This document shows, piece by piece, positions 27,995-50,149 of a DNA stretch of 60,585 nt (its first letter is position 1; the number at the start of each line of letters is the position of its first letter). The position numbers were made by a program, and so were the translations under genes. The stretch comes from a virus, in the IMG/VR virus record IMGVR_UViG_3300034069_001005, positions 1-60,585 of that record, one strand, 5' to 3'. The notes under the pieces are model-generated. The model worked only from the letters and a program-made list of their open reading frames with translations, made no database searches and was not told the origin of the DNA.

Positions 27995-28626
27995 AAGTCC
28001 TCGCATTCGACCAGGCCACGAGCCTGACCGGCTGGGCGGCCGGCAGCAATCGGACGGAGCGGGGCGGCTTCGACTTCGGCTCCATCCGCGTCCCGAAGCG
28101 CGAGGCCTTCGGCGAGCGCCTGGCCTACCTCCACGGGACGATCGCCAAGCTGATCGAGCGATACCAGCCGGACATGCTGGCGTTCGAGGAGCCGTTCTTC
28201 CCCGTCGCGCGGCATGACGCGGTGAGCGCCCGCGCGCCAGGCGGCCGATCCTTTCTGCCACCCGAGGCGGAGCCGGAGGCCGCGGGTGGCCGCGGGGCGT
28301 CGTTCAACGCCGAGACCGTCAAGCAGCTGCAGATGGTCAAGGGGACGATCATCACCCTGGCCGCGCTCTACAGCATCCCGGCCGAGGGCTATGCCTCCTC
28401 GCAATGGCGCGTGACGCTCCTCGGCTACGGCCGGCCGCCGAAAGGCTCCCCGCCGACGTTCGATTTCAAGCGCGAGGCTAGGAAGCGCGTCCAGGCGCTC
28501 GGCTATGATGTCGACGTGGACGACCAGGCCGAGGCGATCGGCATCCTGATGCACGCGCTCCATGGGCCCCAGGCGGCGGCCCGCGCGCAGGGCGATCTTC
28601 TGTCGATGATCGGCGGCAAGCGATGA
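27991..28626 (+). CDS. RuvC-like Holliday junction resolvase
   Basis: GTG start overlapping the HNH stop (GTGA), with an AGGAGG RBS. The acidic catalytic pattern is VLAFDQATS, LAFEEPFF, DDQAEAIGI. Confidence 0.7.
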   Translation: MKVLAFDQATSLTGWAAGSNRTERGGFDFGSIRVPKREAFGERLAYLHGTIAKLIERYQPDMLAFEEPFFPVARHDAVSARAPGGRSFLPPEAEPEAAGGRGASFNAETVKQLQMVKGTIITLAALYSIPAEGYASSQWRVTLLGYGRPPKGSPPTFDFKREARKRVQALGYDVDVDDQAEAIGILMHALHGPQAAARAQGDLLSMIGGKR

Positions 28627-29612
28627 TCGGCGATCCCTTCTTCATCAGCGGCCCGGCCATCATCAGTTTCAGCGGCGGTCGGACCTCGGCGCTCATGTTG
28701 CGGCGGATCCTCGACGCTCATGGCGGCCAGCTGCCGGCCGATGTCCATGTCGCGTTCGCCAACACGGGCAAGGAGCGCCCCGAAACGCTGCGGTTCGTCC
28801 ACGAGTGCGAGGCGCGCTGGGGTGTCCGCATCCATTGGCTTGAGTGGCGCGCCACGCCTAGCCGCGCGGCGGGAACGGCGTCTCTGGCGTCGTGGCTCAC
28901 CGAGAACGATCCAGAACGTCGCATGGTCGCGGACGCCGGGTTCGAGGAGGTCGGGTTCAATTCGGCGTCACGTCACGGCGAGCCGTTCGCGGCCCTGATC
29001 GCCATGAAACAGCGTCTACCCAACTGGCAGGAGCGATGGTGCACCGAGTTCCTGAAGGTGTGGGTCCTCACCGCTTTCGCGGCCGCCCATGGATGGGCGC
29101 CAGGCTCATATCTGGAAGTGATCGGCCTCCGCGATGATGAGCAGCACCGCATCCTTCGCGCGATGTCCAATGCCGAGTTCCGATGGGATCGTAAGCTGAA
29201 ACACGAGGTCCCCAGGGATCCACCCCGCCGCGTTTTCTTTCCGCTCCAGCGCGCCGGCATCAGGAAGGTTGATGTCCTGACCTTCTGGCTAGGCCCCACG
29301 GAGAACACGGACGCCGGGCATATGCCCCAGGGCTTCGACCTCGGCCTGCGCCCCCACGAGGGGAATTGCGATTGGTGCTTCATGAAAGGCCGCGCGCTGC
29401 GCAAGCGGATCGCGCGCGATGCCCCTTGGGTTCCTGGCTGGTGGGCGCAGCAGGAAGCCGTGGGGGGCCGGTGGTTCGATCGGCGCGACCACGCAAGCGC
29501 GCTGATTGAGGAGGTGCGGCGCGCGCCCGAGCTCTTCGATGCGCCCGATGAGGACGACGAGTTCGACGGGGAATGCGGCACGCATTGCGCGCCGATGGAG
29601 GAGGGCCGGTGA
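28623..29612 (+). CDS. PAPS-reductase-like PP-loop ATPase family protein
   Basis: 329 aa with an SFSGGRTS PP-loop (SGGxDS-like). It also has a C-terminal Cys cluster (NCDWCFMKG...ECGTHC). Confidence 0.75.
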   Translation: MIGDPFFISGPAIISFSGGRTSALMLRRILDAHGGQLPADVHVAFANTGKERPETLRFVHECEARWGVRIHWLEWRATPSRAAGTASLASWLTENDPERRMVADAGFEEVGFNSASRHGEPFAALIAMKQRLPNWQERWCTEFLKVWVLTAFAAAHGWAPGSYLEVIGLRDDEQHRILRAMSNAEFRWDRKLKHEVPRDPPRRVFFPLQRAGIRKVDVLTFWLGPTENTDAGHMPQGFDLGLRPHEGNCDWCFMKGRALRKRIARDAPWVPGWWAQQEAVGGRWFDRRDHASALIEEVRRAPELFDAPDEDDEFDGECGTHCAPMEEGR

Positions 29613-30229
29613 GCGACGACATCCACGCTGATCTCCTTGGCTTGGCCGGTGGCGACTTCAACGTCGTGCTGGCCGATCCCGCCTGGACGTTCAAGGGCAA
29701 CAGCGCCGCGAAGCCCGGCCGCAACGCGGCGCGCCACTACCCGGTGATGACGCTGGCTGAGATCGAGGCGCTGCCGGTCCGCGACGTCGTGGCCAAGGAG
29801 GCGGCGCTGTTCCTCTGGATCACCACGCCGCTGCTCGTGATCGGCGCACACATCCCGATCATGAAGGCCTGGGGCTTCACGCCGACCGCAACCGCATTCA
29901 CATGGGTCAAGCTGCGGCGCGGCCATCCATGGCATCACAAGATCGGGGCCGAGGATCTACATCTGGGCCAGGGGCTCACCACCCGGAAGAACACGGAGGT
30001 GATCGTCCTCGGCAAGCGCGGCCGCTCCCTCCGCGTGGATGCCGGGGTCCAGGAGGTGATCCTGGCGCCCGTGCGAGAGCACAGCCGGAAGCCCGATGAG
30101 AGCTATCGGCGGATCAACCGCTATGTCGGCGAGGGTCGCCGGAAGCTTGAGCTATTCTCCCGGGAGGACCGGTTCGGCTTCCACGGCCTCGGCAATCAAG
30201 CCGGCATGTTCAACGTGGCCGCCGAATGA
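29609..30229 (+). CDS. MT-A70 family N6-adenine DNA methyltransferase
   Basis: GTG overlapping the previous TGA. DPAW catalytic motif (VLADPAWTF), plus FLWITTP and EHSRKPDE motifs. Confidence 0.8.
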   Translation: MSDDIHADLLGLAGGDFNVVLADPAWTFKGNSAAKPGRNAARHYPVMTLAEIEALPVRDVVAKEAALFLWITTPLLVIGAHIPIMKAWGFTPTATAFTWVKLRRGHPWHHKIGAEDLHLGQGLTTRKNTEVIVLGKRGRSLRVDAGVQEVILAPVREHSRKPDESYRRINRYVGEGRRKLELFSREDRFGFHGLGNQAGMFNVAAE

Positions 30230-43925: not shown

Positions 43926-44354
43926 TCAGGCCGGGTATGGGCCCTCGAACAGGTCCCCGGCGGCGCGGCGCCCCAAGATCGTCAGCCGGCGCCGCCGCGC
44001 ATGCTCCTCCCGATCGTTGATCAGGTGACATCGCTGGCACAGGGCGGCCAGGTTGGCCGGATCGTTGTGGGTCGGGTCGTGATCGAGGTGGGCCGTGGCC
44101 AGGACCACCCATGTCCGCCGCAGTCGCACGGCGATCTCCGACGGATCCGGCGCCACGATCGCGCGGCCGGCATCATCGCGCCAGGTCCGCGCATCCTCAT
44201 CCCACCAGCGGCCGTCCCCGAGATGGCGCACCAGGCGCCCGTGCGGCCGGCCGCAATCCTCGCATCGGCCTCGGGCTCGGAGGAATCGGACGGCGGCCGA
44301 GACCTCCCGCCAGTCGGTGGGATAGAGCCGGCGATGGGCGGGGCGGATTGGCAT
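43926..44354 (-). CDS. HNH endonuclease (paralogue 2)
   Basis: MPIRPAHRRLYPTDW...ATAHLDHDPTHNDPANLAALCQRCHLINDREEH. It shares its motifs with 27671..27994 but has a ~35-aa insertion. Confidence 0.75.
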   Translation of the reverse strand: MPIRPAHRRLYPTDWREVSAAVRFLRARGRCEDCGRPHGRLVRHLGDGRWWDEDARTWRDDAGRAIVAPDPSEIAVRLRRTWVVLATAHLDHDPTHNDPANLAALCQRCHLINDREEHARRRRLTILGRRAAGDLFEGPYPA

Positions 44355-44445
44355 GACCGAATCATGCACCCCCGCGAGTCCGGCCGCCAACGAAAAAGGG
44401 CGGCCAGCCGGCCGCCCTTCCGACTGTTGCAGAAATTGCAACAGT

Positions 44446-45120
44446 TCAGGCTTCGCCCTGCTCCTTGGCCTGGTAGACGATCCCGTCGGCGGTGCTCCGG
44501 CTGGTGATGCGCGCGATGGCGTCGCGCTCGAACCGGCGGACGTGGCTCATCACGTCATGGATTCCGGTCGTCAGGCGGAGCTCCTGCTCGGTCGCGCCCT
44601 CCTTGAGCTTGTGCCACAGGGTGGCAATCTCGCCCGAGAAGACGTGGCCCGTCTTCGTGGTCGCGGTCGGCGTGACGGCCGGCGCCGGAACGCCCGGGTC
44701 AGTCTCGTCGATCGCCCCGACCGAGGCGGGGCCCGGGGCGGGCGCGACAGGCTGGGCGGCCAGGTCCGCCATCGGCACGCCGAGGTAGGTGTCAGCGGCC
44801 GGCGCGGTAGCCGACGCCGGCAGGGTCCCGCTGATCTCGGCCGCGGCGGCCTGGCCCTTCTCGGCCTCGACGATCTCGGCGTGCTTGACCTCATCCTGGG
44901 CCGCGGCCGCCATGGCGCGGGTGGTGTCCTCGGTGCTGGCCTTGGCCAGGTCGATCGAGCCCGGCACCGCCTCGATCGGCTTCGGCTGCTCGACGACCGT
45001 TTCCGCGCCGGCCGGCGACGGGGAGGCGCCCGCATTGCCCAGCGGCGCGGCCAGGGCGGTCTCGGTAGCCTGGCTTCCGACGTTCCCGGCCGGCGCCTTA
45101 TCGTTCGTCTTCGTAACCAT
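44446..45120 (-). CDS. Hypothetical protein, 224 aa (Ala/Pro-rich N-half, folded C-domain)
   Basis: The ATG lies in the centre of palindrome copy 11. AGGAG RBS 10 nt upstream. Confidence 0.55.
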   Translation of the reverse strand: MVTKTNDKAPAGNVGSQATETALAAPLGNAGASPSPAGAETVVEQPKPIEAVPGSIDLAKASTEDTTRAMAAAAQDEVKHAEIVEAEKGQAAAAEISGTLPASATAPAADTYLGVPMADLAAQPVAPAPGPASVGAIDETDPGVPAPAVTPTATTKTGHVFSGEIATLWHKLKEGATEQELRLTTGIHDVMSHVRRFERDAIARITSRSTADGIVYQAKEQGEA

Positions 45121-45129
45121 GGCGGTTAA
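45113..45129. promoter_or_regulatory. Palindrome copy 11 (GTAACCATGGCGGTTAA) at the head of the late block
   Basis: On the + strand, TTCGTC-17-TAAACT. It overlaps the start codon of 44446..45120(-) and lies 73 bp upstream of ATG 45202. Confidence 0.6.
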
Positions 45130-45201
45130 ACTCCTGTTGCGCGAACGCGCGCGCCGTCACCATATGGCGGCCCAGCCCACATGCACCAGAGGTGATGCGC
45201 G

Positions 45202-45798
45202 ATGACGACCCGGAGGCGGCCGCGGGCCGTCAAGACAGCCCCGACGCACTGGCCCGCCGCGGCCATCGAGATGCGATCGGCGGCGAGCCTCATCCCCTAC
45301 GCGCGCAACGCGCGAGTCCACAGCCCGGAACAGGTCGACCAGATCGCGGCCTCCATGCGCGAGTTCGGCTTCACGATGCCCATCCTCATCGACGAGGGCG
45401 GCGAGATCATCGCGGGCCACGGGCGGCTCATGGCGGCCCAGAAGATCGGCATGGAGGACGTGCCGTGCATGATGGCCAAGGGCTGGTCGGAGGAGAAGCG
45501 GCGCGCCTACGTGATCGCCGACAACCGGCTGGCGGAGAACGCCACCTGGGACGAGTCCCTCCTCAAGCTGGAGTTCGGCGGCCTGCGGGATGCCGGATTC
45601 GACGTCGCCCTGACGGGCTTCTCCGCCAAGGCCGTGGACGCCATGTTCGCGCCCACCGATGGCATCGAGGACGCACCCGCCACCAATTACAAACAGCAGT
45701 ATGGCGTGATCGTCATCTGTAAGGACGAAAAGGAGCAACAGAAAGAGTTCGAGGCGCTGACCAAGGCTGGAAAAAAGGTGAAGATCGTCGTCACATGA
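45202..45798 (+). CDS. ParB N-terminal (nuclease-like) domain protein
   Basis: 198 aa: LIPYARNARVHSPEQVDQIAASMREFGFTMPILIDEGGEIIAGHGRLMAA. GAGGTG RBS. Confidence 0.7.
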   Translation: MTTRRRPRAVKTAPTHWPAAAIEMRSAASLIPYARNARVHSPEQVDQIAASMREFGFTMPILIDEGGEIIAGHGRLMAAQKIGMEDVPCMMAKGWSEEKRRAYVIADNRLAENATWDESLLKLEFGGLRDAGFDVALTGFSAKAVDAMFAPTDGIEDAPATNYKQQYGVIVICKDEKEQQKEFEALTKAGKKVKIVVT

Positions 45799-46976
45799 AA
45801 ATCGAGGTCAGGAATACTTGCGCGGAGGCCACGTCCTACCGCGCCGCACGGGTAAAAAGCCTGTTCAACGCCGAGAGCGGCGCCAACTTCTCCCTCGATG
45901 CGGAGCTCCCGATCGAGGACATGCAATGGCGGATCGGGGTGGTGGTCGGCCCGTCGGGGTCCGGCAAGACGTCGATCGGCCGGCTGATCTTCCCGGAGGC
46001 GGGCGAGTCCGCGTTCTGGAGCCCCACCTGGCCCGATGCGCCGCTGATCGAGGCCATCGGCCCGGAGCAGGACTTCGACGACGTGACGGCCGCCCTCGGC
46101 TCCGTCGGGCTCGGATCGGTGCCGACCTGGCTGCGGCCCTATGGGGCGCTGTCCAACGGCGAGCGGTTCCGCGCGGATCTGGCGCGCCTGGTGATCGACG
46201 CACCGCCCTGCGCCGTGGTCGACGAGTTCACCTCCGTGGTTGACCGGCAGATTGCCCGGTTCGGCGCGCTGGCCTTCGCCAAGGCCTGGCGGCGCGGCAC
46301 CGGCCAGGTGGTCCTCCTGACGCCCCACTACGACGTCCTCGAATGGCTCGAGCCCGATTGGATCTACGACACAGCAAAGCACAGCTTTGCGAGGGGGTCC
46401 CTTCGGCGACCCAAGTTCACTCTCGACGTCTGGAAGACGGACTCCAGTTATTGGCGTCACTTTGAGCCCCATCATTATCTGAAACTGCCGCTGATGGTGG
46501 GCGCCCATTACTATGTCGGCGCGGTCGAGGGCGAGCTTGCCTGCCACCTGGCCGTCGGATCCATCAACAAAGGCAAGAAGGTCGAGGCACGGGCGTGCCG
46601 CCTCGTGGTGATGCCCGAATGGCAGGGCGCGGGCGTGGGGCTCCGGTTCCTCAACGCCATATGCGAGATGCAGGCCCAGGGTGATCCCGCCTCGCGCCTG
46701 GCGGGCCGGCCCACCACGACCATCTTCCACACGAGCCACCCCCAGCTGTGCGCGGCCCTGCGGCGCGATAAACGATGGCGCCAGATCACAGCGACGTTGC
46801 ATGGCGTCACCAAGGTCGCGGGGGGCGCGACCATCCGAGTGTCGCAGCGAGCCAAGAGCACCAGCTTCGGCGTCGTGGGCGCGAGCTCGGGCTACGGCGG
46901 CCATTTCCGGGCCGTCCAGGGCTTTCGGTACTATGGGGCCGCCGGCATCCAGGCGGCAGAGGAGGGGCGGCGGTGA
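45795..46976 (+). CDS. ABC-type ATPase fused to a GNAT-like acyltransferase domain
   Basis: Walker A GPSGSGKTS, signature-like LSNGERFR, Walker B AVVDEFTS, H-loop LLTPHYD. The C-terminal RLVVMPEWQGAGVGLRFLNAI matches GNAT motif A. ATGA overlap upstream. Confidence 0.7.
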   Translation: MKIEVRNTCAEATSYRAARVKSLFNAESGANFSLDAELPIEDMQWRIGVVVGPSGSGKTSIGRLIFPEAGESAFWSPTWPDAPLIEAIGPEQDFDDVTAALGSVGLGSVPTWLRPYGALSNGERFRADLARLVIDAPPCAVVDEFTSVVDRQIARFGALAFAKAWRRGTGQVVLLTPHYDVLEWLEPDWIYDTAKHSFARGSLRRPKFTLDVWKTDSSYWRHFEPHHYLKLPLMVGAHYYVGAVEGELACHLAVGSINKGKKVEARACRLVVMPEWQGAGVGLRFLNAICEMQAQGDPASRLAGRPTTTIFHTSHPQLCAALRRDKRWRQITATLHGVTKVAGGATIRVSQRAKSTSFGVVGASSGYGGHFRAVQGFRYYGAAGIQAAEEGRR

Positions 46977-47644
46977 GGATCTATCTCGCGGGGCAGAGGG
47001 CGTTCGGCGCCATGGTGTTCGACATGATCCTGGAGGCCGGCCACGAGATCGTCGGCGTCTCGGCGCCGTTCGGGCGCGACGCGCCGGGCGGGTGGCGCAA
47101 CGACGCCCTGGCCATGTCGGCCGAGCGGCGGAACATCCCATGGCTCGAGTCCGGGCTGCTGCGCGCCGAGACGCTCCCGCCGGATGTCGATCTGATCGTG
47201 GCGGCCCATTCCCACGACTTCATCGGATCGAAGACGCGCCTGCGCGCCCGGCTGGGCGGCATCGGCTATCACCCGAGCCTCCTGCCCCGTCACCGCGGCC
47301 GCGACGCCATCCGGTGGGCGCTGCACATGGGCGACGCCATCACGGGCGGCTCCGTCTACTGGCTGTCCGACACGATGGACGGGGGCGACATCGCGGCCGC
47401 GCAACACGTCTTCATCGAGCCCGGGGAGACCGTCGATTCCCTCTGGCGCGACAAGCTGGCGCCGCTCGGGGTCGAGCTCCTCGCCCGCGTGCTATCGGAT
47501 CTCGATCGCGGCGTGATGCGCCGGCATCCCCAGGAGCGCGCGGCCGTGACGTGGGAGCCGTCATGGGAGCGCGCCCCGCGTCCCCGGCCTGACCTTGAGC
47601 TCCTCGGCGCGGCTCCGGCCGGCCTCCGGGTGGAGCGGTTCTGA
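46973..47644 (+). CDS. Formyltransferase-fold protein (Fmt/PurN/ArnA-N-like)
   Basis: GTG overlapping the previous TGA, GGAGG RBS. GYHPSLLPRHRGRDAI and SDTMDGGDI match the formyl-transferase N-domain catalytic motifs. Confidence 0.75.
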   Translation: MRIYLAGQRAFGAMVFDMILEAGHEIVGVSAPFGRDAPGGWRNDALAMSAERRNIPWLESGLLRAETLPPDVDLIVAAHSHDFIGSKTRLRARLGGIGYHPSLLPRHRGRDAIRWALHMGDAITGGSVYWLSDTMDGGDIAAAQHVFIEPGETVDSLWRDKLAPLGVELLARVLSDLDRGVMRRHPQERAAVTWEPSWERAPRPRPDLELLGAAPAGLRVERF

Positions 47645-48147
47645 TGGCCAGGGAGCCCGCGGCCGGCACCATTGCGGCGGCGGATGCCGCCGAGCTCCTG
47701 ATGATCGACAAACGCCAGGTGCAGCGCCTGGCCAAGGAGGGCTTCTATCCGCCGTCCGTCCGGGGCCGCTACCAGACGGTCCTCCTGGTCAGAGGCTATA
47801 TCCGGTCCCTGAAAGAGAGCCGCAAGGAGGACACGCGCATCTCGGCGGAGAACCGCGTCCGCGACGCTCGGGCCCGCGATTTCGAGGTGCGGACGGCCAG
47901 GGCCGCCCGGGAGCTCGCGCCGATCGCGGAGCTCGAGGCGGTCCTGGATGAGGTCGTGGGGGAGTTGCGTGCCGAACTCATCGGTCTAGGGTCCGAAATT
48001 ACCCGGGACCTAGATTTGAGGCGCAAAATTGACTCCGCAGTGGACGCCAAGTTCACCCGAGCTTGCCAGGCTATTGTCAAAAAAGCGTCGGCTCTTGCTG
48101 CGCACGGCGAAGCTCTGGAGGCCGACACCGAGGCAGAACCCGGATGA
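47644..48147 (+). CDS. Terminase small subunit (lambda Nu1-like)
   Basis: 167 aa. N-terminal HTH (AAELLMIDKRQVQRLAKEGF) followed by a helical region. The start shares a base with the formyltransferase TGA. Confidence 0.75.
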   Translation: MAREPAAGTIAAADAAELLMIDKRQVQRLAKEGFYPPSVRGRYQTVLLVRGYIRSLKESRKEDTRISAENRVRDARARDFEVRTARAARELAPIAELEAVLDEVVGELRAELIGLGSEITRDLDLRRKIDSAVDAKFTRACQAIVKKASALAAHGEALEADTEAEPG

Positions 48148-50149
48148 GTGGGCGGCCTCCAACATCGTCTATCCCGCGAGCTCCGGCGTTCCTGGAGCCC
48201 GCGACGTCCGCCTGACGCCCTATTGCATCCCGTTCCAGCGCGAGACCGTGTCGGGCCGCTGGCGGCGCACCGTGATGGTGTGCGGCGCCCAGATGGGCAA
48301 GACGGCGTCCTTCCTCGACATCATCGGCGAGCGCCTGGACAACCGGCCGGCCCCGATCCTCTACGTCGGCCCCACGGAGCAGTTCATCGAGGAGCAGCTG
48401 GCGCCGCGCGTCACCGAGCTATTCGAGACTTCCAAGAGCCTCGGCGCCAAGGTGAGCCGGGCCAAGCGCCAGCGGCAGGCGCTCCGCTACGTGGCGGGCG
48501 TGAAGCTCCGCTTGGCCCACGGCGGATCGTCCTCCGCCCTCAAGTCCGATCCTGCCTCCGTCGGCTTCGTGGATGAATACGACGAGATGTTGGCCTCGGT
48601 GAAAGGCCAGGGCGATCCCCTGGGCCTGGTCCAGGCGCGCGGGTTCACTTACGCGGATTTCCTCACGGTGGTCGCATCGACCCCAGGCCTCGGGATTGCA
48701 GACGTGGAACGAGACGACGCGAGCGGTCTGGAGTTCTGGCGCCGCTCCGATCCGGACGACATCCAGTCGCCGATCTGGGCGCTGTTCCAGACGGGCACCA
48801 TGCACCATTGGGCCTGGCCCTGCCCCCATTGCGGCGCCTATTTCGTCCCGCGGATGAAGAACCTGGATTTCAATCCGGAGGCCCGGCCGGCCCAGGTGCG
48901 CCGCGACACGGTGATGATCTGCCCGAACCCGACCTGCAAGGGCCGCATCATCGACAGCGAGCACAAGGCGGAGATGAACGCCCGGGGCCTGTTCGTGGCC
49001 TACGGTCAATGGATCGAGAATGGCGTGGTCGTGGGCGAGCCCGAGGACACCGACACGTTTTCGGTCTGGATCTCCGGCCTGTGCTCCCCGTTCCAGTCCT
49101 TCGGCGACCGCGCGGCCGAGCTCGTCGAACAGATGCAGAACGGGACGCCCTCCAAGGTCCAGACGGCCACGAACGCAGGCTTCGGGGAGCTCTACAGCCC
49201 CGGCGGCGGCGAGGTGCCGGAATGGCAGGCCGTGCAGCAGCTGAAACGCCCCTACAGCCCGATGACATGCCCCGCGGGCGTGATGGTCCTGACGGCGGCG
49301 GCCGACGTCCACAAGCGCCGCATCAACGTAGTGGTCCGGGGCTGGGGCAAGCGGGGGACTTCGTGGAAGATCTACTCCGTCGCGCTCGAGGGCGACACGC
49401 TGGAGCCCGACATCTGGCGGGAGCTTGAGGAGGTGCTGATGCTGCGCTTCCCGGTCCTCGACGACAGCGGCCGGACGCTCCCCATCAAGATCGCGTTCGT
49501 CGACTCCGGCTATCGGCCGGGCAAGCCGGAGATCGTGCCCGAGAACATGGTCTATGACTTCTGCCGGCGCCATCGGCGCTTCGTGTTCCCCACCAAGGGC
49601 GCCAGCCGGCCGCAGCGGACCGGCCTGGTCAAGTCGAACATCGAGGTCAACTACAAGGCCCAGGGCGACAAGTATGGGCTGGAGCTCATCACCTTGGACA
49701 CTGACGTGTGGAAGCGGTGGGTCCACGAGCGCATCCGCTGGGATCCGACGCGGCCCGGCGCGTGGTTCCTGGACGGCGAGTCCGACGAGGACTATGCGCG
49801 CCAGCTGGTGAGCGAAGCGCGGGTCAAGGGCGCGAACGGCAAATGGACGTGGGTGCCGCGCAGCAAGAAGAACCATTGGTTCGATTGCGAGACCATGAAC
49901 GCCGCGGCCGGCTACCTCTTGGGCGTCCAGCGCATCGGTCTGCGCCAGGGCGAGGATCCGGAGGAGGACCCGACGGACGACGAGCGGGGCGACGCGCCCG
50001 TGACGCCCGCCCCGGCGCCGGTGCCGGTGTCCGCCCCGGTGCCCCCCCTGGCGCCCGCCCCGGTGCCGGGCAAGACGCCGGGGCCGGCGGGGGACAATCC
50101 AACGGCGAACAAGTTTGCTATGCTGAGCGCGCGCATGAACAAGAGGTGA
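48029..50149 (+). CDS. Terminase large subunit (lambda gpA-like)
   Basis: LWRPTPRQNPDEWAASNIVYP parallels lambda gpA LFRPEPQTAVEWADANYYLP. Walker A-like CGAQMGKT. TTG start with a GAGG RBS. 119-nt overlap with terS. Confidence 0.9.
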   Translation: MTPQWTPSSPELARLLSKKRRLLLRTAKLWRPTPRQNPDEWAASNIVYPASSGVPGARDVRLTPYCIPFQRETVSGRWRRTVMVCGAQMGKTASFLDIIGERLDNRPAPILYVGPTEQFIEEQLAPRVTELFETSKSLGAKVSRAKRQRQALRYVAGVKLRLAHGGSSSALKSDPASVGFVDEYDEMLASVKGQGDPLGLVQARGFTYADFLTVVASTPGLGIADVERDDASGLEFWRRSDPDDIQSPIWALFQTGTMHHWAWPCPHCGAYFVPRMKNLDFNPEARPAQVRRDTVMICPNPTCKGRIIDSEHKAEMNARGLFVAYGQWIENGVVVGEPEDTDTFSVWISGLCSPFQSFGDRAAELVEQMQNGTPSKVQTATNAGFGELYSPGGGEVPEWQAVQQLKRPYSPMTCPAGVMVLTAAADVHKRRINVVVRGWGKRGTSWKIYSVALEGDTLEPDIWRELEEVLMLRFPVLDDSGRTLPIKIAFVDSGYRPGKPEIVPENMVYDFCRRHRRFVFPTKGASRPQRTGLVKSNIEVNYKAQGDKYGLELITLDTDVWKRWVHERIRWDPTRPGAWFLDGESDEDYARQLVSEARVKGANGKWTWVPRSKKNHWFDCETMNAAAGYLLGVQRIGLRQGEDPEEDPTDDERGDAPVTPAPAPVPVSAPVPPLAPAPVPGKTPGPAGDNPTANKFAMLSARMNKR

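Follow-up and report, generated by a model that had tools for sequence, protein, structure and literature searches.

A conserved phage late-operon module of an ABC ATPase–GNAT fusion and a formyltransferase-fold protein is a candidate ParB-assisted DNA acylation system

We analysed a viral contig of 60,585 nucleotides (60.6 kb; IMG/VR record IMGVR_UViG_3300034069_001005; 68% GC), hereafter the window, which holds a prophage running from ~19 kb to past 58 kb, and found that the rightward late operon of this prophage opens with a compact three-gene module. The genes encode, in order, a protein with a ParB-type N-terminal domain (ParB N-domain) that ends in a small β-α-β mini-domain, a fusion of an ABC-type ATPase with a GNAT acyltransferase domain (ABC–GNAT), and a protein of the formyltransferase fold. 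Considering the anatomy of the module, the conservation of its motifs, the folds, the gene linkage, the natural fusions and a ParB N-domain flavour shared with DNA modifiers, we favour the reading, with a probability of about 0.5, that the module is a late-expressed, ParB-assisted, ATP-dependent DNA acyltransferase that uses acyl-coenzyme A (acyl-CoA) and is supplied with formyl-CoA by the formyltransferase.

The proposed reaction is a post-replicative acylation, most likely a formylation, of the phage's own DNA before packaging. The formyltransferase-fold protein would move the formyl group of 10-formyl-tetrahydrofolate onto the CoA thiol, yielding formyl-CoA, a donor that cells would not normally keep in supply. 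The GNAT domain would bind the acyl-CoA by its Q-x-x-G-x-G loop and acylate an exocyclic amine of a base in double-stranded DNA (dsDNA), and the ABC ATPase domain would dimerise on ATP and provide an energy-dependent clamping or remodelling of the polymer substrate. The 37-residue mini-domain would serve as an obligatory subunit or adaptor of ABC–GNAT and, where fused to a ParB/Srx N-domain as in the window, would tether a ParB-type loader or activator for dsDNA, a step that we draw by likeness to ParB–Mom pairs, ParB–methyltransferase fusions and the T-dioxygenases of phages. Modified in this way, the packaged DNA would be shielded from restriction or other DNA-sensing defences, and members of the family that have no accessory gene could use acetyl-CoA.

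All three genes lie on the plus strand and are chained end to end. Gene 1 (45202-45798, +) encodes 198 residues, gene 2 (45795-46976, +) 393 residues, and gene 3 (46973-47644, +), which begins with GTG, 223 residues. The sequence reads ATGA at 45795-45798, where genes 1 and 2 overlap, and GTGA at 46973-46976, where genes 2 and 3 overlap, and in a TGATG the stop codon of the formyltransferase gene (47642-47644) has one base in common with the ATG of terS (47644-47646). An earlier note on this DNA, made from the sequence alone, had described the trio as chained by 4-nt stop/start overlaps and its last stop as sharing a base with the terS ATG, and both the coordinates and the three junctions proved to be exactly so. 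Because the GC content at third codon positions is 0.87-0.90 across the trio, against 0.45-0.52 at second positions, and because the family matches are strong, we take the three open reading frames (ORFs) to be real genes.

The module is widespread and its parts travel together. A word-indexed search returned at least 5,400 relatives of protein 2, and a profile search of 1.84 billion representatives returned 783 clusters at 50% identity (E ≤ 1e-30). These relatives are 50-70% identical across at least 11 phyla and come from Pseudomonadota, Planctomycetota, Acidobacteriota, Chloroflexota, Verrucomicrobiota, Bacteroidota, Bacillota, Gemmatimonadota, Desulfobacterota, Campylobacterota, Binatia and Actinomycetota phages. 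Linkage was counted in 160 loci of IMG/VR and GTDB genomes. The formyltransferase gene lies immediately 3' of ABC–GNAT at 119 of the 135 loci with enough flanking sequence and, conversely, ABC–GNAT lies just upstream in all 62 of the 62 loci found with the formyltransferase as seed; on the other side, a 4-nt overlap joins the mini-domain stop codon to the start of ABC–GNAT in 104/139 evaluable related loci, a recurrence that argues against a chance linkage of the upstream gene to ABC–GNAT. The proposal of the earlier note that the trio is one functional unit agrees with this strongly conserved linkage. The motifs that the same note quoted are all present and are invariant or nearly so in 14-39 homologues, and the ABC, GNAT-loop and formyltransferase motifs are kept across the family.

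We found the constant upstream partner of ABC–GNAT to be the mini-domain and not the ParB N-domain. In the window, the mini-domain (YGVIVICKDEKEQQKEFEALTKAGKKVKIVVT; 45685..45798, +) comprises the last ~37 residues of protein 1, and across 138 loci it follows the consensus Yk.qyGViViC.dE.eQ..vy..L...G...KVV.V. It was found in 142 of 156 loci, whereas a ParB N-domain stands upstream of ABC–GNAT in only 43 of 144 related loci. The mini-domain is a stand-alone protein of 40-60 residues in ~70% of loci, with gp28 of phage phiE255, a Porphyromonas phage 'acr candidate' and phrog_28816 (matched by the window mini-domain at 5e-9) as examples, and is fused to a ParB N-domain in ~30%. It also occurs in distant subfamilies (Jace, Streptococcus, Oenococcus, SL25). 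At least 8 cluster representatives carry ParB N-domain, mini-domain and ABC–GNAT in one chain, and since single-chain fusions constitute Rosetta-stone evidence, the three parts are expected to act together. The conserved trio is therefore mini-domain, ABC–GNAT and formyltransferase, with the ParB N-domain as an accessory in ~30% of loci: the earlier note had drawn the last two members correctly, and its choice of the ParB N-domain as the constant first member gives way to the mini-domain.

In every context that we examined, the module lies in phage or prophage late regions only. It stands directly before terS/terL in every Pfam-labelled context, next to terminases of the GpA, TerL_ATPase, Terminase_6 and Terminase_3 families, and the Gordonia Sourvirus phages have the trio as genes 1-3, followed by terminase. 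In the Mu-like phage phiE255 it comes last in the late operon, behind the tail-fibre genes, which is where Mu has mom, and the records of Porphyromonas phages have it at their far right end, after the tail genes. The translational coupling of the window genes to terS/terL, along with an HNH endonuclease gene just upstream on the opposite strand, would suit an accessory role in packaging, in which the ParB-like protein and the ABC ATPase help the terminase to recognise or process concatemeric DNA and the transferase domains are vestigial. We consider such a role very improbable, since hundreds of sequences keep the CoA loop of the GNAT domain and the formyltransferase residues His, Ser and Asp without exception, the ParB N-domain is dispensable in ~70% of loci, and the module accompanies four terminase families and is also found away from terminase genes.

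The ABC-type ATPase domain of protein 2 (45795..46385, +; residues 1-197) carries the full set of catalytic motifs and a conserved N-terminal SYRAARVKSLFN element. In alignments of 14 and of 39 homologues, Walker A (G52-S60; GPSGSGKT), the signature motif (L119-S120-x-G122-E123; LSNGE), Walker B (D143-E144; VVDEF) and the H-loop (H178) are invariant or nearly so, and the D-loop (SVVD) is likewise kept. An AlphaFold2 (AF2) model of the protein (predicted local distance difference test score, pLDDT, 79.8) found ABC nucleotide-binding domains as its best Foldseek matches at E ~1e-8, and motif set and fold together place the domain in the ABC ATPase superfamily. Against Pfam, the protein matches ABC_tran and AAA_16 with an additional weak match to Acetyltransf_7, and at full length it matches phrog_11143 ('unknown function') at 2.5e-131; no NCBIfam model reached its cut-off. 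Databases name members of the module 'ABC transporter ATP-binding protein', 'GNAT family N-acetyltransferase', 'tRNA-methyltransferase' or 'phosphoribosylglycinamide formyltransferase', and PHROGs lists ABC–GNAT and the mini-protein both as unknown. We rejected the transporter label. The domain resembles the nucleotide-binding domains of ABC transporters, and the COG entry 'ABC-type ATPase with predicted acetyltransferase domain', in motif set and fold; unlike transporter domains, it shows no invariant Q-loop glutamine in the stretch from Walker A to the signature motif, shares its chain with a GNAT domain, is encoded solely in phage or prophage late regions in all contexts examined, and has no membrane partner or permease gene in any annotated or Pfam-labelled neighbourhood examined.

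Three relatives of protein 2 (P0431, P0465 and P0500) contain an intein with Hint and LAGLIDADG homing endonuclease domains, which in P0465 sits exactly between the L and the S of the ABC signature LSNGE. Inteins usually occupy essential, highly conserved sites. Taken together, the 50-70% identity across phyla, the 783 clusters and the inteins, one of them within the signature motif, suggest that the module is functionally important. In four other relatives (P0392, P0412, P0423 and P0510), the C-terminal ~90 residues weakly resemble the winged-helix families HTH_24, MarR_2, HTH_IclR and HTH_20.

The GNAT domain (46386..46976, +; residues 198-393) has an acyl-CoA pyrophosphate loop, Q277-G278-A279-G280-x-G282, of which Q277xxG280xG282 is invariant (QGAGVG in the window). 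In 39 homologues the domain is very basic, with a median isoelectric point (pI) of 10.4 and a net charge of +17, next to an acidic ABC domain (median pI 5.0). A sequence search of the GNAT domain against the PDB gave one marginal match, and since the full-length Foldseek result was dominated by the ABC half, a separate model of the GNAT domain was built. This AF2 model (pLDDT 80.2) matched CBU0801, RimI, Naa50/60 and SpeG at E 4e-6 to 1e-4, all generic GNATs; 113 PDB matches reached E ≤ 1e-3, and those listed are GNATs. Fold and acyl-CoA loop thus assign the domain to the GNAT superfamily. Within that superfamily, we rejected membership of two families that act on nucleic acids. The domains DUF1726, RecD-like helicase, GNAT_acetyltr_2 and tRNA_bind_2 of TmcA/NAT10 were not found in a Pfam scan, and TmcA and NAT10 structures are absent from the top 50 fold matches of the protein 2 domains; the TmcA precedent that had been cited for the fusion therefore does not extend to family kinship. 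For Mom (PF25680), there was no Pfam match at E ≤ 0.01, and hhalign against three Mom homologues gave a probability of 0.6%.

Since the nearest GNAT structures include the N-terminal acetyltransferases RimI and Naa10/50/60, a protein substrate has to be considered, in which the module N-acylates or formylates a structural or packaging protein of the phage or a defence protein of the host; co-expression with terminase and head genes would suit the modification of a morphogenetic protein. The fold matches are generic, with TM-scores of 0.45-0.65 and at most 16% identity, and because the module is found with four or more unrelated terminase families and at varied positions, in phiE255 and Porphyromonas phages after the tail genes, it has no constant partner among the phage proteins. 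A nucleic-acid substrate is favoured instead by the charge of +17, by the association with ParB and by the fusions to ParB in a single chain, and we regard a protein target as improbable.

SpeG and other small-molecule GNATs among the fold matches, and the position of the module in phiE255 and Porphyromonas phages, typical of a moron, are in keeping with a reaction on a small molecule such as a polyamine, nucleotide, signalling molecule or antibiotic, and a short ORF placed upstream and overlapping by 4 nt is a layout reminiscent of toxin–antitoxin pairs, as for a GNAT toxin acting on aminoacyl-tRNA together with its antitoxin. Both variants appear quite improbable to us. An ABC ATPase would not be expected for the acylation of a small molecule; the mini-domain equals the enzyme in conservation and is fused to ParB or to the enzyme itself, unlike antitoxins; no known GNAT toxin is among the top 50 fold matches; and expression from the late packaging operon speaks against a toxin that blocks translation. 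A PADLOC scan likewise returned only generic matches (ParB-MTase and ABC, the latter mad3), and on these we rejected membership of a known defence system.

Protein 3 matches Formyl_trans_N of Pfam (PF00551) at 3.4e-19 and 69.7 bits, above the cut-off of 26.1, and phrog_9240 at 1.7e-48; its GTG start is supported by the alignment of FDH and Fmt N-termini from residue 1 onward. The best PDB match is the N-terminal hydrolase domain of FDH (ALDH1L1; 2bw0, 2.4e-23), ahead of Fmt (7.5e-15) and HypX (3.5e-4). Residues H100, P101, S102, L104, P105, G109, D136 and G138, which include positions of the HxSLLPxxxG folate-site motif, are invariant in 64 members, and H100, S102 and D136 align with His106, Ser108 and Asp142 of FDH. 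Position 98 is G, I or A in 62 of the 64 members and never N: where E. coli Fmt and PurN have N-x-H, the window protein has G-Y-H, and the canonical Asn of amine formyltransferases is absent, as it is in the FDH domain. The formyltransferase assignment of the earlier note holds for the fold, with the correction that the motif has no canonical catalytic Asn. The protein also ends at residue 223, without the C-terminal tRNA-binding domain of Fmt, and falls below the NCBIfam equivalog cut-offs for fmt (67.3, at 1.2e-18, versus 201.5), PurN (41.6 versus 150.1) and ArnA (44.1 versus 777). On these grounds, we rejected an identity as an amine formyltransferase (Fmt, PurN or ArnA). One weak formyltransferase match in the phage collection (H55, Salmonella) is a host fmt gene in a bacterial record and not a phage paralogue; it is the one inspected among the matches below ~35% identity, which include Salmonella, Staphylococcus, Listeria and Enterococcus records.

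By catalytic triad and closest similarity, protein 3 resembles the formyl-to-thiol transferases, i.e., the FDH hydrolase domain and the N-domain of HypX, more than the amine formyltransferases. The FDH domain transfers formyl from 10-formyl-tetrahydrofolate to the thiol of 4'-phosphopantetheine by means of His106, Ser108 and Asp142, and the HypX N-domain has been proposed to formylate the thiol of CoA itself (Muraki et al. 2019, PMC6802093). Unlike FDH and HypX, the phage proteins are free-standing (160-350 residues) and carry no Fmt-like OB, carrier, ALDH or enoyl-CoA-hydratase-like domain. From these comparisons, the probable task of the formyltransferase is to provide the acyl donor, and not to act on nucleic acid itself. 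The formyl chemistry of 7-deazaguanine pathways, which had been offered as a precedent, finds no support in the window, where no DpdA or Que genes were found among the ORFs scanned.

A second line of evidence on the donor comes from a sister ABC–GNAT subfamily, which counts at least 7,684 members, shares ~35% identity with the window protein and is represented in the Gordonia/Rhodococcus phage Jace, Streptococcus phage 315.4, Oenococcus phages and Pseudoalteromonas SL25; its upstream ParB proteins likewise end in the mini-domain. In this subfamily, the position of the formyltransferase can be taken by an aspartate decarboxylase (PanD; 2e-33) followed by a CoA-transferase-III-like protein of 227-229 residues (2e-8), which matches the CoA-binding N-terminus of family III CoA-transferases. 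This variant was seen in Jace (gp87-gp88; L086:5065-6176) and in two metagenomic contigs (L172:5095-6140 and L173:4613-5658), Jace being its only carrier in the phage collection. It is plausible that the pair makes β-alanyl-CoA and so provides another route of acyl-CoA supply. The FDH/HypX likeness of the formyltransferase, the canonical CoA loop of the GNAT domain and the PanD/CoA-transferase pair in the sister subfamily are the reasons why we assign the accessory gene the role of a donor supplier, and some members of the family have no accessory gene at all.

The evidence on the target comes mainly from protein 1. Its residues 1-161 (45202..45684, +) form a ParB/Srx N-terminal domain of the NTP-binding fold, a helical segment and an acidic linker, which the mini-domain follows. 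The protein matches ParB_N of Pfam at 1.7e-6 (28.4 bits, cut-off 26.3) and phrog_620 at 3e-52, and its G72-H-G-R75 aligns with the ParB box (GxxR). An identity as a chromosome or plasmid partition ParB was rejected: the partition model TIGR00180 scores 31.7, below its cut-off of 58.45, neither HTH_ParB nor the C-terminal dimerisation domain PF23552 gave a Pfam match in the 198-residue protein, and no ParA gene is adjacent to gene 1 in the window. The label 'nuclease-like', under which protein 1 had first been described, is merely a historical name of the ParB/Srx fold, and nothing points to nuclease activity. Instead, the closest ParB N-domain flavours are modules fused to DNA methyltransferases (phrog_498, 1.6e-51; PADLOC MTase_II, 3.8e-40). 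Most of the 120 closest homologues of protein 1 end in the β-α-β mini-domain, and the others have different tails.

Homologues with such other tails, either zinc-ribbon-like (CPHC…WDLREHG) or of the form …NALARICEVFNG, overlap genes of the Mom family that are followed by terminase in 3 of 3 contexts examined (L184:1085-2261, L185:3501-4752 and L186:3501-4932), with one Mom match reaching 7.8e-41 in Pfam. One ParB N-domain protein preceding a Mom gene (P0339) is 60% identical to that of the window over 135 residues (2e-64). A further contig (L182:52-2767) encodes a ParB N-domain with mini-domain, followed by an ABC–GNAT that is interrupted by an assembly gap, and a second protein that joins a near-identical ParB N-domain to an N6/N4 DNA methyltransferase, with terS/terL coming next. 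The 2026 paper on Mom contains no occurrence of ParB (PMC13219725), and the ParB–Mom partnership may thus be undescribed so far. The Mom homologues of the three contexts, which are 36% identical overall, share a nearly invariant C-terminal tail, KQATTDDQSAGRxGSTDPHAPN.

Several recent studies provide precedents for ParB-fold proteins as partners of DNA-modifying enzymes. Phage ParB proteins that consist of a nucleotide-binding domain (NBD), helices, an unstructured linker and a small C-terminal domain (CTD), and that have no DNA-binding domain, activate T-dioxygenases specifically on dsDNA, and neither the NBD nor the CTD can be spared for this (O'Toole et al. 2026, PMC13229309). Fusions between the ParB fold and methyltransferases show enrichment in prophages (Kaljevic et al. 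2025, PMC12704722). By its sequence features, protein 1 has the layout of such ParB-assisted DNA-modification systems, i.e., a ParB N-domain without helix-turn-helix (HTH), a linker, a small CTD, and a late-region gene beside that of the enzyme. Because its ParB N-domain flavour is common to DNA modifiers, because of these ParB precedents and because the GNAT domain is basic, DNA is the most likely substrate. The parallel with 5mYOX176/ParB176 (PMC13229309) lies in a ParB protein of this layout beside a post-replicative DNA-modifying enzyme; in contrast to the window, the partner is an iron/2-oxoglutarate-dependent (Fe/2OG) dioxygenase, and the NBD and CTD are both needed, whereas most ABC–GNAT loci have the mini-domain alone, the comparison being one of layouts and not of CTD homology. 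The fusions of a ParB N-domain to an N6/N4 methyltransferase (PF02195 and PF01555; PMC12704722) share the ParB N-domain flavour and the position upstream of terS/terL, and they differ in being joined covalently to the enzyme rather than via a mini-domain, in methylating with S-adenosylmethionine and in having no ATPase.

Mom of phage Mu modifies N6 of adenine in dsDNA as a GNAT protein that uses Gly-tRNA(Gly) (Silva et al. 2026, PMC13219725). Like the window module, it has the GNAT fold and is expressed late, from the end of the late operon or from before terminase; in metagenomic phages it is preceded, with an overlap, by a ParB N-domain of the window's flavour; and it has an anti-restriction role (PMC13219725, PMC7261163) that we propose for the window module as well. 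In contrast to Mom, the window GNAT lies outside the Mom family, keeps the CoA loop that the three Mom homologues described above do not have, is fused to an ABC ATPase and has a formyltransferase partner, and Mom needs no ATPase. Thus, the analogy to Mom drawn in the earlier note survives in the 60%-identical ParB N-domain before Mom and terminase genes, and not as membership of the GNAT domain in the Mom family.

These likenesses to Mom also admit a two-step reaction on DNA, in which an aminoacyl group is taken from tRNA or from another amino-acyl donor and the formyltransferase caps its α-amine, giving an N-formyl-aminoacyl adduct. The tRNA-dependent chemistry of Mom (PMC13219725), the pairing of window-flavour ParB N-domain proteins with Mom genes, the rank of Fmt proteins as the second-best structural relatives of the formyltransferase (NCBIfam fmt 1.2e-18) and the stabilisation that capping could bring to an otherwise labile adduct all fit this route. 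We nevertheless think it unlikely, because the CoA-pyrophosphate loop is invariant in ABC–GNAT and missing from the Mom homologues, the GNAT domain has no profile similarity to Mom, the formyltransferase has neither the amine-formyltransferase Asn nor the Fmt C-terminal domain, and the variant with PanD and CoA-transferase points to CoA thioesters.

The target could instead be RNA. TmcA has an ATPase plus GNAT architecture. The module could accordingly be an ATP-dependent writer of N-acyl-cytidine or N-acyl-adenosine in tRNA or rRNA, as TmcA/NAT10 are, that tunes or protects late translation. Like TmcA and NAT10 (a precedent cited in PMC13219725), which acylate an exocyclic nucleobase amine in a polymer from acyl-CoA, protein 2 fuses a P-loop ATPase to a GNAT domain, the very basic GNAT domain would suit any nucleic acid, the ABC matches include ABC-F proteins and EttA, which are ribosome-binding ATPases, and a universal target in RNA would be in keeping with the 50-70% identity between phyla. 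In addition, an ASCH-domain gene follows the ABC and GNAT genes in Streptococcus phage 315.4 and Oenococcus phages, and ASCH proteins remove N4-acetylcytidine (ac4C) from tRNA, according to a 2026 preprint (10.64898/2026.02.27.708502). The ATPase of TmcA/NAT10, by contrast, is a RecD-like helicase and not an ABC protein, the TmcA domains (DUF1726, RecD-like helicase, tRNA_bind_2) were not found, and TmcA/NAT10 have no ParB or mini-domain partner, no formyltransferase and no phage late-operon context. Moreover, the flavour of the ParB N-domain partner is otherwise joined to DNA methyltransferases and Mom, and a site beside packaging genes, or at the position of mom in Mu, is typical of DNA-modifying genes. 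We therefore rate RNA, too, as an unlikely target. The ASCH adjacency, seen in only two Firmicute phage lineages and not quantified, hints at cytosine N4 as the modified position. In these lineages, the two halves of the enzyme are annotated as separate genes: 225 (ABC) and 89 (GNAT) residues with a gap between them in Streptococcus phage 315.4 (L084:3869-4938), where the GNAT part looks truncated or decayed, and 225 (ABC) and 128 (GNAT) residues in an Oenococcus phage (L085:3989-5049).

Several observations weigh against the DNA acyltransferase that we favour. Literature searches turned up no modified nucleoside, phenotype or biochemical assay for any member of the family. As the ParB N-domain is absent from ~70% of subfamily loci, DNA targeting by ParB cannot be essential. 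The fold matches of the GNAT domain are generic and include protein N-terminal acetyltransferases, those of the ABC domain are transporter and ABC-F domains and not DNA-clamp ABC ATPases, and a basic GNAT domain suits RNA as well as DNA. The formyl-CoA step is drawn from homology, the formyl-CoA reaction of HypX is itself a proposal without direct experimental proof (PMC6802093), and ~12% of loci have no formyltransferase. Simple N6-acyl groups on adenine are reported to be unstable (PMC13219725), which limits the bases that could hold a stable formyl group. Finally, the winged-helix resemblances in the C-terminal extensions of some relatives are all below Pfam cut-offs and count as no more than a hint.

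By analogy, the module fits the ParB-assisted, post-replicative modification of phage DNA. Compared with the known ParB-assisted systems, the architecture of mini-domain and ABC ATPase–GNAT fusion, the proposed donor-supply step and a mark so far undescribed would be new, and the chance of a categorically new DNA chemistry is realistic, if clearly below even. Full-text literature searches found no paper describing the module, in line with the earlier statement that no system of this architecture was known. A bolder generalisation, which we put forward tentatively, is that the module is the first enzymatic system to N-acylate DNA bases from CoA thioesters, with an ATP-driven ABC–GNAT as the writer, the mini-domain as its obligatory subunit, and interchangeable donor-supply cassettes that give rise to a family of so far unseen marks in thousands of phages of at least 11 bacterial phyla. 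The formyltransferase cassette would then lead to N-formyl bases, the pair of PanD and CoA-transferase to β-alanyl bases, and the lack of a cassette to acetyl-CoA as the donor, with N4-acetyl-deoxycytidine as an example of the product, and the ASCH neighbours might be readers or erasers of the mark.

If DNA acylation by the module is borne out, acyl marks (formyl, acetyl or β-alanyl) would be added to the few post-replicative modifications of phage DNA, a family of many thousand members mislabelled in databases as ABC transporters would gain its first function, and formyl-CoA produced by a formyltransferase fold would have a second use in biology. It would also widen the emerging rule that ParB-fold proteins are loaders or activators of DNA modifiers, spanning methyltransferases, T-dioxygenases, Mom and ABC–GNAT, with consequences for restriction evasion, for the interpretation of sequencing signals and for phage engineering, and the enzymes could be developed for acylating DNA at chosen sites. 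Cultured carriers of the module already exist for tests of the proposal, namely the Gordonia Sourvirus phages (such as Axumite and Sisko), Burkholderia phage phiE255, Pseudomonas phage Komp_PAO1_1 and Porphyromonas phages (such as phage007a).

In the window, the module is followed by terS (47644-48147, +; phrog_57, 1.9e-13; weak HTH_17 match) and by a terL of the lambda gpA type (GpA_ATPase 7e-40, GpA_nuclease 3e-54, phrog_15 2.8e-152), whose longest ORF spans 48029..50149 (+) and whose true start probably lies between 48029 and ~48180. Upstream, two minus-strand genes encode the HNH endonuclease (43926-44441, -; phrog_1571, 1.5e-24) and an Ala/Pro-rich protein of 224 residues without a family match (44446-45120, -). 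As these flanking genes run divergently from the module, we take the 81-nt gap at 45121-45201 to be a divergent control region; no sigma-70-like promoter was detected in it, and a promoter and terminator scan of 44300-48300, uninformative at 68% GC, found nothing. Elsewhere, the prophage encodes an RNase_T-like exonuclease, a DUF3799 PDDEXK protein, a RecN/SbcC-like AAA_23 protein, a RuvC-like protein, DnaB, a DUF932 protein and an HTH_ParB protein. In its early region, a PAPS-reductase-like gene (28623-29612, +; Pfam 2.3e-5) extends into the 5' end of the gene for an MT-A70 adenine methyltransferase (29573-30229, +; Pfam 9.8e-25), and the two may form a second, separate DNA-modification pair.

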